NCBI RefSeq assembly: GCF_001677475.2
Contig: NZ_CP015229.1
DNA: 64,000 nucleotides
Source: Escherichia coli
Lineage (GTDB): Bacteria > Pseudomonadota > Gammaproteobacteria > Enterobacterales > Enterobacteriaceae
Reading direction: 5' to 3' (one strand)
Part shown: positions 4,866 to 40,204 of the stretch, piece after piece
Position numbering within the stretch: the stretch's first letter is position 1
Layout: each line of letters starts with the position of its first letter
Program-made: the position numbers and the translations under genes
Notes under the pieces: generated by a model
Seen by the model: the letters and a program-made list of their open reading frames with translations, nothing else
Databases searched by the model: none
Told to the model about the DNA's origin: nothing

Positions 4866-5174
4866 TCACTTCAACATGGATGAGAAAAGAACAATACCCG
4901 GGATAATTGCCCTTGTTGCGCTCATTTTCTCTTCCAGATCCAGCTTCCGCTGATACAGCGTGTTCTCGTCGGATAAATTGCTGGCATCGAGTTTCCCCGC
5001 GATAGATATTCTTCGCAGGCGATCAGTGTTAGGTATCGCGATTAACACTTCCAGATAGTCAGAAAGTAACCCAATGATTTCAGGTGGCACTTCCCCATTA
5101 TCCAGATCCATATCACGTAAATTAGCCAGATATGACACATTCAGCGGGTATATATGACCAAGTAAATTATTCAA
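4866..5174 (-). CDS. Hypothetical protein (102 aa); 5' end runs into the putative prophage left end, true start may be internal
   Basis: ORF track; N-terminal codons overlap the region I assign to the Mu-type prophage terminus. Confidence 0.3.
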
Positions 5175-5312
5175 GATAACCGGGAAGAGATTAAAAAAGA
5201 CGGGAACAGATTGGAATCAATAGGTTAGAAACTACCGATATTCAAGATAAAACGGGTTAAAAATGCTCAATACGTCAATATCGATAAAACATTCAAGATA
5301 GGCGCGCCGTGT
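5138..5312. repeat. Direct repeats with ATTCA(A)GATA core at prophage left end; candidate transposase-binding sites (L1-L3-like)
   Basis: ATTCAGCGGG near 5138, ATTCAAGATAACCGGG near 5169, ATTCAAGATAAAACGGG near 5240, ATTCAAGATAGGCGCG near 5301; similar to the TTCACGATAAATGCG motif inside the right end. Confidence 0.4.
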
Positions 5313-5400
5313 TATTTCAAGCCTTTTAAGCCCCTTCAAAAATGCCCGCATCTCCTTTTAAAGCGAATTTTAAAGAAGCTCCAAAAGCAGGTCAATTAAG

Positions 5401-5916
5401 TCAACCTGCCTTTGCTTTTACGCTGTGTGAGAGAATACTTGCTTCAATTTCTTCCAAAATCTCTCTGACTTGCTCGTCGGACATATCAACCAACATCAAT
5501 GCAGCCAGGCGTTTACGACCCTCTAGTTGCAGCAGTTCTTGAGTATCTTTGTCCAATAAGCGTAGTACCGTTTCAACGCCTTTCCTTGCGAACATGCTGG
5601 TAAGAGCCTCTCGTTCTTCACTAGTAAGAAACGAGAGCATCTCAGTTAGCTGATCGCCTTGACTTAAACTGCTTTGTGATTCTTGTATTTTTGGTGGGTT
5701 TCCGTTGCCTGTTTTTAACCATTCAAGACTAACACCTTCACTTTCTGCAATGCGTACCAATATGCTTTCTCGAGGTTCTGGTGTGTTTCCCTTTTTAAAA
5801 TAGCTTTGTAACGTATTGATATTTATTCCCCAGGCTCTGGCTGCAGCACTTCTTGATGGATACCGTCTAATAAGATATGCCATGCGCTCTACGATAGGTT
5901 CTTTTGCTTGCTCCAT
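5401..5916 (-). CDS. Prophage repressor (c-like), HTH DNA-binding protein
   Basis: 171-aa ORF divergent from ner-A-B; HTH-like segment SAAARAWGININTLQSYF; position matches the Mu c gene. Confidence 0.6.
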   Translation of the reverse strand: MEQAKEPIVERMAYLIRRYPSRSAAARAWGININTLQSYFKKGNTPEPRESILVRIAESEGVSLEWLKTGNGNPPKIQESQSSLSQGDQLTEMLSFLTSEEREALTSMFARKGVETVLRLLDKDTQELLQLEGRKRLAALMLVDMSDEQVREILEEIEASILSHSVKAKAG

Positions 5917-6056
5917 AAAAGTACCTCTAGGTATTTTTCTGCATAAAGGTTCTTTTCCATCTATCTAATTGAATAGAAAGGAAAATTCAAAAATACAAAC
6001 AAAATACAAAAAATACCTTGTAATGGTACTTTTTGTGATCTACGATTTTATCCATA

Positions 6057-6078
6057 CGGATATCCGACCGGATATCCG
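6057..6078. promoter_or_regulatory. Tandem 10-bp palindromes CGGATATCCG (x2, 12-bp register) in the divergent c/ner control region; candidate Ner or repressor operator
   Basis: Seen directly: CGGATATCCG AC CGGATATCCG about 30 nt upstream of ner start; AAATACAAA-type repeats at 5990-6020 nearby. Confidence 0.45.
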
Positions 6079-6107
6079 CGCGGGTAACTTTGTAGGGTAA
6101 AGGAAAG

Positions 6108-6359
6108 ATGAGACAAAGAGAAGATCGCGACCGCGATTGGCCTTCGCTAAAGATTCAGCTGGCGCTCAAAGATAATGGGTGGTCTTCCTTCCGGGAGCTT
6201 TCACTCCATGCTGGTTATGCTCAGGATTCACTGAAAGCGGTAGTTCGTACACCGAACAAAAAATACGAACGCGTAATTTCTGACGCTATAGGTGTACCGC
6301 CAGAAATCATCTGGCCCAGCCGGTATCGTAACGATGGATTTATCAGGAAGGCGTCGTGA
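6108..6359 (+). CDS. ner: Ner-like DNA-binding transcriptional regulator
   Basis: 83-aa ORF with RBS; C-terminal motif IIWPSRY typical of Ner/Nlp family; sits immediately before the transposase gene. Confidence 0.75.
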   Translation: MRQREDRDRDWPSLKIQLALKDNGWSSFRELSLHAGYAQDSLKAVVRTPNKKYERVISDAIGVPPEIIWPSRYRNDGFIRKAS

Positions 6360-6360
6360 T

Positions 6361-38545: not shown

Positions 38546-38559
38546 TGAGGAAATCAGGC

Positions 38560-39135
38560 ATGAAAATCAGAGCGGTGAAAGGTATCAGAAACGCACATTA
38601 TCTTGAAAATGGTGCGGTTGACTGCGAGGTGTTATTTGAAGGTGAAACGGAGTTCGCCCTGTATACTGCCATACAGGATGATATGGCCCCGACAGGCCAG
38701 CACATCTGGCAGGAGCTGCAAAGCGGGAAATGGGGCGAAATCGCCCCGTTCACCGTCACGCCGGAACTTATTGCAGCGGCAAAGGATGCCAAAAGGCGGG
38801 AAATTGAGGCATGGCGCGACAGTCAGGAAAACGTTGAGTTTATTTTCACGTTTGATGGCCGTCGTTTTGATGGCGGAAAAACCTCGCAGTCACGCCTTGC
38901 CCCCGTGGTTGCAGCAGCGCAGGCCGGACTGCTTCCGGAGGGATTTTTCTGGACTGATGCGGATAATAACAACGTCGTACTGACCAGGGAGAAACTTATT
39001 GCGCTGAACGATGCCATGATGGTGGCCATGGTGACGGAGGGCTTTAAAATCCACGAACGCCAGCGCGAGATGAAAGAGCAACTTTCCCTGCTGTCCACAC
39101 TGAGCGATATAAGAGCGTTAACGCCCGGTTATTAA
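38560..39135 (+). CDS. Tail fibre assembly protein (second Tfa)
   Basis: ATG 38560 (alternative ATG 38545 right after the fibre stop); about 191 aa downstream of the long fibre gene. Confidence 0.5.
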   Translation: MKIRAVKGIRNAHYLENGAVDCEVLFEGETEFALYTAIQDDMAPTGQHIWQELQSGKWGEIAPFTVTPELIAAAKDAKRREIEAWRDSQENVEFIFTFDGRRFDGGKTSQSRLAPVVAAAQAGLLPEGFFWTDADNNNVVLTREKLIALNDAMMVAMVTEGFKIHERQREMKEQLSLLSTLSDIRALTPGY

Positions 39136-39158
39136 GTCATCATTTTGTATAGTTTATA

Positions 39159-39257
39159 ACGATCGATACAATCGTATCGATCGTCAGTTTGCATCATCTG
39201 TGATTAAATACCCTGGCCCTCAGGGCTGTCGTATCTGGTTAATACACAGGTGGGATC
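39159..39257 (+). promoter_or_regulatory. com-mom upstream control region with GATC-containing inverted repeat
   Basis: Inverted repeat ACGATCGATAC/GTATCGATCGT (39159-39184) carrying two GATC sites, a third GATC at 39254-39257 abutting the com ATG. Confidence 0.45.
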
Positions 39258-39443
39258 ATGGATGCTGTTCGTTGTAAAAACTGCAATAAATTGCTGTTTA
39301 AAGGAAGTTTTAAGCATATAGAAATCAAATGCCCTCGTTGTAAACGTTACATTGTCATGTCGAGTGCCCGGGAGCATCCCACGGAGCTGTATTGTGGGAA
39401 AAGAGAAGAAATCACGCATCCTTACAAAACCCTGCGTTATTGA
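39258..39443 (+). CDS. com: Com zinc-finger translational activator of mom
   Basis: 61 aa; [10 protein letters not shown]...CPRCKR four-Cys zinc finger closely resembling Mu Com; overlaps the mom 5' end. Confidence 0.8.
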
Positions 39444-40089
39444 GTATGAAGGCCGTATTGTCGGCTATGGTTCAAGGGAACTGCGCGTTGAAACCATATC
39501 CTGCTGGCTGGCCCGCACAATCATTCAGACAAAGCACTATTCCCGCCGTTTTGTGAATAACTCCTGGTTGCATCTGGGGGTATTCAGCGGACGTGATCTG
39601 GTTGGCGTTCTCCAGTGGGGATACGCCCTTAATCCCAACTCAGGGCGTCGGGTCGTGCTGGAAACGGATAACCGGGGCTATATGGAACTGAACCGCATGT
39701 GGTTACACGACGACATGCCCCGCAACTCTGAATCACGGGCTATCAGCTACGCACTGAAAACCATCAGGTTACTGTATCCATCAGTGGAGTGGGTTCAGTC
39801 CTTTGCAGACGAACGCTGCGGACGTGCAGGTGTTGTGTATCAGGCATCTAATTTTGATTTTATTGGTAGCCATGAAAGCACGTTCTACGAGCTGGACGGC
39901 GAGTGGTATCACGAGATAACGATGAACGCGATTAAGCGTGGAGGACAACGAGGCGAGTATTTGCGGGCTAATAAGGAGCGGGCGGTGGTACACAAATTTA
40001 ATCAGTATCGCTACATCAGATTCCTGAACAAGCGCGCAAAAAAGCGATTAAATACCAAGCTATTCAGGATTCAGCCATACCCGAAGTGA
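39394..40089 (+). CDS. mom: Mom DNA-modification protein (anti-restriction)
   Basis: Frame open from 39352; start placed at GTG 39394 (231 aa, start uncertain); last gene before the prophage right end as in Mu. Confidence 0.7.
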
Positions 40090-40154
40090 TCTCACTTAAT
40101 GAATAAAAAAGCAGCGGCCAATGCCGCTGTTTCGTTTGAAGCGCGAAAATTAAA

Positions 40155-40204
40155 GTTTTCGCATTTATCGTGAAACGTTTTCGCGTTTTTCGTGCGCCGC
40201 TTCA
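40155..40204. repeat. Prophage right terminus (Mu attR-like transposase binding sites, ends ...GCGCCGCTTCA)
   Basis: Reverse complement reads TGAAGCGGCGCACGAAAAACGCGAAAACGTTTCACGATAAATGCGAAAAC, nearly identical to my recollection of the canonical Mu right end. Confidence 0.7.

Follow-up and report, generated by a model that had tools for sequence, protein, structure and literature searches.

The window, that is, the whole 64,000-nt stretch of Escherichia coli DNA analysed here, carries a Mu-family prophage at 5153-40204 (35,052 bp) that ends like Mu on the right and does not begin like Mu on the left. The question raised by this locus is whether the interval represents one phage with an uncommon pair of ends or parts of different elements brought together.

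Gene content, ends and flanks of the interval

According to PHROG and Pfam profiles, the repressor c, ner, transposase A and ATPase B stand at the left of the interval, with the DDE transposase and the AAA+ protein B adjoining c/ner at the left end (Table 1). They are followed, in order, by Kil, Gam, GemA, Mor, endolysin, terminase, portal, F, protease and major head, and then by sheath, tube, tape measure, baseplate and fibres, with Com and Mom closing the Mu-like order. Each product from Kil to Mom matches a protein of a Mu-type E. coli prophage in the same order (tblastn and Pfam labels). When the proteome of a Mu-type prophage is mapped by tblastn, its proteins fall in order on most of the ORFs between 9499 and 40086, and the other ORFs scanned in the interval match PHROG phage families. 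Neither the map nor the scan of the remaining ORFs revealed an integrase in the interval, and no att was found. The preliminary description of a Mu-family transposable prophage is thus supported at the level of gene content.

Table 1. Features of the window, in order of position
Position	Strand	Feature	Evidence or remark
1..5152	-	P1-like phage-plasmid DNA	93-99% covered, 94-97% identity in P1-family phage records
within 1..5152	-	sit (partial)
3348-4229	-	pmgB
4244-4855	-	tub
4866-5152	-	pmgC, C-terminal part, cut at 5152
5149..5152	.	TATA, left copy of the 4-bp target duplication of prophage X in pmgC	empty P1 site gggTATAccgctc
5153..5330	+	X-type left end, terminus 5'-TATGACC	terminus common to six independent insertions
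5401..5916	-	repressor c, X-type	phrog_3037 transcriptional repressor, E 1.5e-52
6108..6359	+	ner	phrog_769; Pfam HTH_35
6361..8457	+	transposase A, X-type, 698 aa	phrog_310, E 4.5e-196
8533..9486	+	transposition ATPase B	phrog_296; Pfam Phage-MuB_C
9499..13988	+	early/semi-essential region: kil, gp6-like, gam, gp11-like, gemA, mor	83-85% nucleotide identity to Mu over much of it
14074..21589	+	endolysin, small ORFs, DUF3486 (Mu gp27-like), terminase large subunit, portal, F-like
17729-19264	+	terminase large subunit
19261-20832	+	portal
20825-21589	+	F-like
21803..23668	+	protease/scaffold gene I and major head gene T	tblastn
21913..23755	.	patch of 11 window-only differences, ten of them single-base indels	comparison with draft contigs
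23752..39135	+	head-tail joining, sheath, tube, tape measure, DNA circularisation protein, baseplate, tail fibre and tail fibre assembly genes
25836-27311	+	sheath
28161-30026	+	tape measure
28122..39227	.	interval with the X-to-Y switch (provisional)	flanking alleles
36254-38545	+	tail fibre
38545-39135	+	DUF4376 protein
39258-39443	+	com	Com 69% identical to Mu, protein level
39394-40089	+	mom	Mom 96.5% identical to Mu, protein level
40133..40204	-	Mu-type right end (R1-R3 region), terminus ...CGCCGCTTCA	68/72 identical to Mu
40205..40209	.	GCGAT, right copy of the 5-bp target duplication of prophage Y	empty chromosomal site gaacaGCGATgacccc
40208..48415	+	chromosome, right flank	~99% identical to E. 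coli chromosomes from 40203 on
40208-40609	+	176-aa HExxH gene, 3' part, interrupted by Y
40606-40962	+	lipoprotein ORF
41184-43178	+	vgrG	Pfam
43229-43681	+	DcrB-like	Pfam
43700-48415	+	rhs	Pfam

The left module departs furthest from Mu, as had been noted for the repressor, ner and transposase. The c product has no significant similarity to the Mu repressor in protein comparison, Ner and B are 35% and 41% identical to their Mu counterparts, and the transposase reaches 25% identity to MuA, in the core only. Its Pfam domains are HTH_Tnp_Mu_1, a weak rve and Mu-transpos_C, and in protein comparison its residues 80-260 have no similarity to the end-binding domains of MuA. Identity of this transposase is 96% to VL40, 92% to STEC346 and 81% to Yersinia phage vB_YpM_5, and the exact protein occurs in 22 contigs at no fewer than four different sites.

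Regarding the termini, the left one lies at 5153 (TATGACC...), as fixed by six independent insertion junctions and by the P1 match, which ends at 5152. The interval had first been drawn as 5133-40204; its left start therefore moves 20 bp further in, whereas the right terminus stays exactly at 40204. At the left end ATTCAAGATA occurs three times (5169, 5240, and 5291) and nowhere else in the 64 kb, against 0.09 copies expected, with 0 of 100 shuffles reaching three; these repeats are presumed to be binding sites of the transposase. A motif search found no RCGAAAA of the Mu type in 5153-5400, and Mu sites L1-L3 are missing, in agreement with the earlier remark that the left end offers repeats and no Mu L-end sequence. 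The right end is indeed close to canonical: the last 72 bp match both Mu and SfMu at 68 of 72 positions, the last 76 bp differ by one base from an E. coli Mu-type prophage, and four RCGAAAA motifs are clustered at 40143-40193, while the motif search of the 64-kb window returned no ATTCAAGATA there. The two ends thus do not both have sites for the resident transposase. By the standard of Mu sensu stricto the right end alone qualifies; the distant transposase and the TA left terminus without Mu sites do not.

The flanks differ as well. Positions 1..5152 match the IncY phage-plasmid pNADC1036 at 99.1% identity. The right flank is chromosomal, and the host gene interrupted at the right end has no Pfam match. 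GCGAT directly follows the right end and, as the preliminary description had it, is not found beside the left end, which adjoins P1 DNA. The left flank is P1 pmgC (..TATA), the right flank is chromosome (GCGAT..), and the corresponding empty sites lie in different replicons, which bears out the suspicion that the flanks do not derive from one simple insertion.

Two parental prophages in draft assemblies

The partners of both ends were found in draft assemblies identical to the window, which contain all four parental junctions; across the two junctions of the window itself, draft contigs are likewise 100% identical to it. The predicted fusion of PmgC(1-94) with the right end of the first element (X) has an exact match in 9 draft contigs. 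This junction reads ...GCGCGCTTTA|TATA|ccgctcgatg and lies in the other half of P1 pmgC; the right end is of the TTCAAGATA type, the 4-bp duplication is TATA, and the X early region adjoining P1 is single-copy in the drafts. Also found there was the other expected fusion, in which the N-terminus of the host gene runs into a left end of the Mu type. The left junction of this second element (Y) is gaacaGCGAT|TGTATTGATTCAC, i.e., a Mu-type left end at the chromosomal site, and beside it lies a 662-aa MuA-like transposase; the A protein of Y is 91.7% identical to MuA.

Judging from these junctions, prophage X has entered the pmgC gene of a P1-like phage-plasmid by simple insertion, with 5'-TA...TA-3' termini, TTCAAGATA sites at both ends, its own c/ner/A/B and 4-bp duplications. 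Prophage Y, likewise simply inserted, interrupts a small gene of the chromosome upstream of vgrG-rhs and has TG...CA termini, Mu L/R sites, a MuA-like transposase and 5-bp duplications; the Mu-type right end of the window belongs to Y. The window itself contains the X-type transposase, left terminus, left sites and left TATA copy, and the right terminus of X is absent from it and seen in drafts only. Just 4 bp are repeated in four X-type insertions. A 5-bp or 6-bp duplication with TG termini was considered for X and discarded, as TA precedes TGAC at six independent sites.

X and Y have ~30 kb of late genes in common at 99.5-100% identity. Their homology starts within the early region (a Y contig, L035, aligns from 9959), and from ~10 kb up to 72 bp before the right end the gene sets are nearly equal; X-type relatives part from the window sequence exactly at 40133. 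No difference between X and Y occurs over 13483-27061 (13.6 kb), and at most one over the subsequent ~11 kb. At 27062, 27092, 27156, 27164, 27224, and 28121 the window has X alleles (identical to L037 and L046, with Y-linked L035 and L042 differing), and at 39228, 40048, 40056, 40092, and 40096 it has Y alleles (identical to chromosome-linked L017-L019, with P1-linked L027 and L029 differing). A crossover inside mom was also considered, the match to RM9088 stopping at 39816, and was rejected: the stop is an ISEc12 insertion in RM9088.

The data themselves establish two end types, two flanks, four parental junctions and the allele switch. The interval is best read as a hybrid of two Mu-family prophages co-resident in one E. 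coli lineage, with the left end of X and the right end of Y (XL...YR), to which we give a probability of about 0.88; against it, no long-read or complete record with the parental or the recombinant linkage was found. A single homologous exchange within the shared stretch, between 28122 and 39227 (a provisional interval, as the alleles of X and Y come from isolates of the lineage other than the source of the window), would give the order seen here: P1 DNA, XL with the early genes of X, the late genes common to both prophages, and finally YR beside the chromosome. This one exchange joining X to Y would account for the discordant ends and flanks alike.

Recombination product or assembly misjoin

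The hybrid join is either an ordinary recombination product or an assembly misjoin. Chances are about even that it is an artefact, with X complete in a free P1-like plasmid, Y complete in the chromosome, and the assembler threading chromosome, repeat, plasmid, repeat and chromosome into one circle because reads did not span the identical stretches of 11-14 kb. The distribution of X/Y differences described above would favour such an error, and the single-circle path needs the same four junctions as the parental path. A search of the complete E. coli genomes in RefSeq and of PLSDB turned up neither junction. Besides, on general grounds, direct repeats usually recombine out more quickly than a plasmid integrates, and a fixed cointegrate should be the minority state. 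However, the alleles form one clean switch with no patchwork, and X alleles are kept 13.6 kb past the last X-unique base, which suggests that the reads were able to phase the second stretch.

The patch in the head genes, which lies inside the repeat, also counts for an artefact; outside it the window is 100% identical to Illumina drafts. Its 11 differences are the only ones from L037, L039, and L041 over 10769-29262. According to tblastn, the reading frame of gene I changes at a frameshift at 21913; gene T has frameshifts at 23435, 23495, and 23607 and loses its stop codon at 23665. Compared with three relatives and every draft contig, the frameshifts in both genes are single-base deletions in G/C runs and belong to the window only; exact protein search found neither the truncated nor the repaired head proteins on record. 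The patch probably consists of consensus errors and indicates that the consensus here came from long reads. That the head genes are truly pseudogenised is unlikely: of the 11 differences, which all lie within 1.85 kb and are absent from every draft, 10 are 1-nt indels.

A real join, at somewhat less than even odds, would be due to RecA-dependent recombination between plasmid-borne X and chromosomal Y, by which the P1-like plasmid was integrated. The product would be chr-[YL...XR]-P1-[XL...YR]-chr, with the window holding the right-hand hybrid. The chromosome and a low-copy plasmid have long homology to each other (~30 kb at 99.5-100% identity), the parental half-sites are present, all four of them, the single allele switch fits one crossover, and apart from the indel patch the sequence has finished quality. 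E. coli is also known to tolerate integrated P1 replicons, as in integrative suppression by P1. All the points counted for an artefact stand against a real join, and the reciprocal hybrid was not seen.

As for the single mosaic phage of the preliminary description, in which one phage would naturally combine a left end of the X type with a right end of the Mu type and would have inserted once, its flanks being rearranged later, it now seems very improbable. Mu-family phages are mosaic, D108 and Mu differ by swapped early regions and thus provide a precedent, and the window itself has the XL/YR combination. However, like ends are paired with like in all complete relatives, and in the drafts each end of the window has its cognate partner elsewhere, at the matching half-site with the matching duplication. 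The X transposase residues 80-260, unlike the MuA end-binding domains, and the single-copy X early region beside P1 count against it as well. Least credible is a replicative-transposition cointegrate, in which one phage copied itself from the chromosome to P1 and fused the replicons: plasmid on the left and chromosome on the right is the topology of Mu-mediated fusion, but this needs two identical copies with cognate ends and split duplications, and here there are two end types, a different A/B module in Y, and a complete duplication for each parent (TATA flanks X in P1, and GCGAT flanks Y in the chromosome).

Consequences and related elements

Returning to the X-Y hybrid, the X transposase would be unable to use the Mu-type right end, and for this reason the XL...YR hybrid, with its non-cognate ends, is predicted to be immobile as a unit. 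That this transposase also recognises Mu-type sites is unlikely in view of the strict co-variation of ends with transposase and of its residues 80-260. The hybrid would keep X immunity and the X early genes; if the head-gene frameshifts are real, it would not be able to make capsids. In annotation, the interval should not be given as one intact Mu-like prophage with a target duplication, because it takes its ends from two elements and lies on a contig that joins plasmid to chromosome. That link needs a read-level check before the P1-like element counts as integrated.

With a real join, at the same somewhat less than even odds, a P1-like phage-plasmid already invaded by a Mu-family phage would have been captured in the chromosome by recombining with a second, resident Mu-type prophage, which would leave two reciprocal locked hybrids with non-cognate ends. 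If the join is real, it would be a natural case of transposable phages seeding long homologies across replicons and driving plasmid capture, and the exchange would disable both phages, each transposase being parted from one of its ends. A block of ~165 kb (the ~95-kb plasmid and two 35-kb hybrids) would be bracketed by cognate YL/YR together with the Y transposase and could in principle move or amplify as a giant composite element. Only with a real join does the locus resemble Hfr formation or F' integration, where one plasmid-chromosome crossover at a repeat gives two reciprocal hybrids; here, however, 35-kb prophages that differ in their transposition modules serve as the repeats, and the plasmid itself is a P1-like prophage. 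A literature search returned nothing specific on P1-like plasmids integrated via Mu-like prophages.

In comparison with Mu (NC_000929), SfMu, and D108, the overall gene order of the window prophage is the same, and c, ner, A and B are just 0-41% identical. Positions 9485-13904 of the early region are 73-85% identical to Mu at the nucleotide level and Kil is 85% identical at the protein level, while the late genes have no nucleotide similarity to Mu; the com-mom region (39258..40089) shows 88% nucleotide identity to Mu and SfMu. Unlike Mu, the window has no L1-L3 at its left end, no G segment or gin (none within 23752..39135) and no matching duplication. The late genes of the STEC1575 (NZ_CP116044) Mu-type prophage are ~95% identical to the window, and those of prophage Y (L034/L035) >99.6%. 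Among such Mu-type E. coli prophages, the GCGAT right junction is that of Y itself. In contrast to the window, STEC1575-type prophages and Y begin with a left end of the Mu type (TGTATTGATTCAC...), encode a transposase with 92% identity to MuA and are flanked on either side by 5-bp duplications.

X-type relatives include prophages of E. coli VL40, STEC346, and FDAARGOS_943, Yersinia phages vB_YpM_5/6 and Sp18-like inserts, themselves Mu-like phages, in Stx phages (LC727895), the transposase of the latter being ~71% identical in DNA. The lineage of the window shows that a whole Mu transposition module (both termini with c, ner, A, and B) can be exchanged on a phage backbone that is otherwise identical, and the non-Mu module comes with TA termini and 4-bp duplications. 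Such duplications are found in the X-type relatives, in part according to depositors' annotation; for Mu-like phages the literature search gave nothing specific on them, and the only record of TA termini with 4-bp duplications that was found is a GenBank annotation. Unlike the window, X-type relatives have the cognate right end ...TATCTTGAATAATTTTGCGCGCTTTA, in which the motif of the ATTCAAGATA repeats is again present three times, with TTCAAGATA at offsets 18/40/75. The TTCAAGATA sites are shared by the E. coli relatives, and all complete ones have sites of this type at both ends, RM9088, the FDAARGOS_943 narI copy, and STEC388 being truncated or IS-rearranged and uninformative on right ends. 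The left terminus of the E. coli X-type prophages and of vB_YpM_5 is TATGA..., as in the window, and the LC727895 insert starts with TGTAACC and ends with ...GCTATA. In place of TTCAAGATA, vB_YpM_5 and the Stx-phage insert have TTTGATAC repeats.

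Flanks and ends of the window prophage

The prophage interval of the window is most likely (probability about 0.88) a hybrid of two prophages: X, a Mu-family prophage that resides in gene pmgC of a P1-like phage-plasmid and owns the left end (XL), and Y, a true Mu-type prophage that resides in the chromosome upstream of vgrG-rhs and owns the right end (YR).

Arrangement of phage-plasmid, prophage, and chromosomal DNA in the window
Segment	Position	Length	Content
P1-like phage-plasmid DNA	1-5152		sit, pmgB, tub, C-terminal part of pmgC
Mu-family prophage	5153-40204	35,052 bp	
E. 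coli chromosome	from 40203/40205 onward		begins within a 176-aa hypothetical gene, extends as far as narZ

The left flank has 93-99% coverage and 94-97% identity to P1-family phage records, is 99.1% identical to an IncY phage-plasmid, and in hundreds of plasmids the P1 match ends at 5152. On the right, the cut 176-aa gene is followed by a lipoprotein ORF, vgrG, a DcrB-like gene, rhs, and eventually narZ. Empty sites were found separately in the chromosome (gaacaGCGATgacccc) and in P1 (gggtataccgctc). Thus, the flanks derive from different replicons and a common target duplication is impossible, which bears out the earlier doubt that they stem from one simple insertion.

According to PHROG and Pfam, the prophage encodes a repressor, Ner, a 698-aa DDE transposase, and a MuB-like ATPase. 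E. coli Mu-type prophage proteins map collinearly onto most of its ORFs from kil to mom, and no integrase was found in it, in line with a transposable phage of Mu-like gene content and order. The final 72 bp, ending at 40204, match Mu and SfMu at 68 of 72 positions, with the Mu-type RCGAAAA motif clustered in 40143-40193. The left terminus, which the preliminary description placed at 5133, is set at 5153 by an identical TATGAC... start after six unrelated flanks. RCGAAAA is absent from this end; instead, ATTCAAGATA is present here at 5169, 5240, and 5291, its only positions in the 64 kb (0/100 shuffled controls attain three matches). As for the proteins, the X transposase is 25% identical to MuA, across the core only, X-type B and Ner are 41% and 35% identical to their Mu counterparts, and the similarity between the repressors is not significant. 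The preliminary description was therefore right about the near-Mu right end, the repeats on the left, and the less Mu-like repressor, ner, and transposase. Its mosaic Mu-family phage stands as a Mu-family prophage with a divergent left module, but not as a single phage with its own end pair, since each end has its cognate partner at the other half of its own insertion site.

The two parental prophages

The left-end type of the window is carried by only 5 of the 5,426 complete E. coli genomes. Complete X-type elements in strains VL40, STEC346, and FDAARGOS_943 have the right end ...TATCTTGAATAATTTTGCGCGCTTTA, and relatives of this type part from the window exactly at 40133, the start of its Mu-type end. 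The three TTCAAGATA sites have offsets 18/40/75 at the right end and 18/89/140 at the left; their spacing is Mu-like, whereas the sites themselves are of X type. While Mu has TG...CA termini and a 5-bp duplication, the termini of the X-type module are 5'-TA...TA-3', and each of four independent insertions duplicated 4 bp of target (TATA, TTCA, ATTC, and GAAA, the last three in complete-genome elements), as read at window 5149-5330 and in comparison sequences L003 (12001-12180, 46530-46612), L026 (1347, 36590), L053, and L027. In complete genomes, IS elements frequently interrupt relatives of the X type: ISEc12 lies in mom of RM9088 (L004 5314-5508), ISEc60 in the narI copy of FDAARGOS_943 (L025 32600-34230), and ISCro1 fuses the STEC388 copy to another prophage (L052 10208-12860).

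The exact transposase of the window is present in 22 draft-assembly contigs at several sites: by mtl, by flk, at another chromosomal site, and repeatedly at the same P1 pmgC junction, where the contigs match the window at 100% from position 1 to an endpoint that varies between 9527 and 13348. A predicted fusion of PmgC residues 1-94 with YKARKIIQDRYGILSR, i.e., the other pmgC half running into an X-type right end, was matched exactly in 9 contigs, one of them from an assembly that also holds the P1-left-end contig. This right junction reads ...GCGCGCTTTA/TATA/ccgctcgatg, which makes X a simple insertion in pmgC with the 4-bp duplication TATA. At least about a dozen draft contigs from several assemblies show the same arrangement (window 1-13348; L007-L010, L012, L013, L027-L031), and X, a transposable phage within a phage-plasmid, has apparently spread clonally there. 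Among the complete plasmids of PLSDB, none has X in pmgC of a P1-like phage-plasmid.

A second predicted query, the N-terminus of the interrupted chromosomal gene fused to a Mu-type left end, was also found. The left junction of Y reads gaacaGCGAT/TGTATTGATTCAC; behind it come genes for a Mu-type repressor, Ner, a transposase of 662 aa with 91.7% identity to MuA, and B. Together with the right junction of the window, present in 16 draft contigs at 100% identity, it shows Y to be a Mu-type simple insertion whose 5-bp duplication is GCGAT. The left GCGAT, missed earlier, thus adjoins the left end of Y, outside the window.

A comparison of 5153-9486 and 40133-40204 with contigs L034 and L035 places what separates X from Y in the left end, the genes c, ner, A, and B, and the final 72 bp: a single phage backbone bears either of two transposition modules. 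Both types keep the left-end spacer AACCGGGA.GA.ATT, and the swap is more complete than that between Mu and D108. Contigs joining the transposase of Y to late genes (L035, L040) are ~2.5% different from the window in 9959-13482, identical in 13483-27061 (13.6 kb, zero differences), and have Y-specific alleles at 27062, 27092, 27156, 27164, 27224, and 28121, where contigs from X-bearing assemblies (L037, L046) share the alleles of the window. The window does not share the alleles of P1-linked X contigs at 39228, 40048, 40056, 40092, and 40096, whereas chromosome-linked contigs are identical to it from 38096 on. By this pattern the window carries X sequence through 28121 or beyond and has become Y by 39228, with one X-to-Y switch within ~11 kb of near-identity, a provisional interval, the alleles being those of sister isolates.

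Origin of the join

A single homologous recombination event between X on the plasmid and Y on the chromosome would produce P1-XL...YR-chromosome, which matches the observed arrangement exactly. Short-read drafts cannot discriminate a real join from a misjoin, because the same four junctions exist in both arrangements. The window has 11 private differences from every draft, all in 21913-23755 (1.85 kb); outside this region it is identical to Illumina contigs. All but one are single-base indels, most in short G/C or A runs, and they disrupt the protease and major head genes, abolish the head stop codon, and displace the next start. An exact-protein search retrieved no record of the head protein, whether truncated or repaired. 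The region is probably an uncorrected long-read consensus patch within a two-copy repeat, which suggests a long-read-based assembly with difficulty at this place.

An assembly misjoin, with two prophages on separate replicons threaded into one path, has about an even chance: the free-plasmid state is expected to dominate, and a single-circle path through the assembly graph is easy. The P1-chromosome join itself may not exist as a biological structure. The switch is single and clean, and X alleles persist 13.6 kb beyond the last X-unique base, which speaks mildly against a misjoin and, by implying reads long enough, mildly for a real plasmid-chromosome cointegrate, which the former two considerations leave somewhat less probable. 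All other explanations of the join, taken together, are improbable, and a fusion by replicative transposition is excluded, given that the modules are not alike and both parents possess a complete duplication of their own.

The XL...YR hybrid would presumably be unable to transpose as a unit, since in each complete element compared the type of the ends goes strictly with that of the transposase, and residues 80-260 of the X transposase, at the position of the end-binding domains of MuA, have no MuA similarity and are also the part differing from the transposase of Yersinia phage vB_YpM_5. This viable phage (L051 960-1330) has termini as in X (TATGA... / ...GCGCGCTTTA), but its repeats are TTTGATAC rather than TTCAAGATA, and the two transposases agree at 67% in residues 80-260 and 97% in the core. 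These residues are a candidate site-recognition domain.

Published relatives and neighboring genes

In STEC CC119, 6 of the 10 Mu-like phages are located in MGEs (PMC10132054). An X-like transposase is present in Yersinia phages vB_YpM_5 and vB_YpM_6, the ends of which are not discussed (PMC10434027). According to a 2021 survey, TG-CA ends are general for Mu- and B3-like phages, except for Leptospira TA-TA prophages with 6-bp duplications (PMC8705779). In LC727895.1, where a remoter relative resides in an Stx1a phage, the depositors annotate a 4-bp duplication, AGAG. Thus, TA termini with 4-bp duplications of the E. coli X type are little described, though not unknown. Plasmid integration via shared repeats is textbook knowledge; like Mu-like phages inside other mobile elements, it is of an already known kind, to which the hybrid, if real, adds an instance.

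The fibre region (35700-39135) encodes a 763-aa fibre and a DUF4376 protein, with no invertible G segment or gin. No other late part is conserved so little, and its matches are tail-fibre genes in unrelated prophages (Rac-SA53, SerU-LTIIb, an Actinobacillus phage). The protein of the gene interrupted by Y is 176 aa long, contains an HExxH motif, and matches no Pfam family. Next comes, immediately upstream of vgrG-DcrB-rhs, a small ORF whose product has a lipoprotein-like signal (…LSGC), and the two (window 40208-40962; L001 5877-6760) could be a toxin/immunity pair tied to the type VI locus. Low-GC DNA downstream of rhs contains a region in two diverged copies, 48775-49137 and 51295-51655 (93% and 86%), for which the annotation in strain ETEC1738 is a SymE-family toxin gene.
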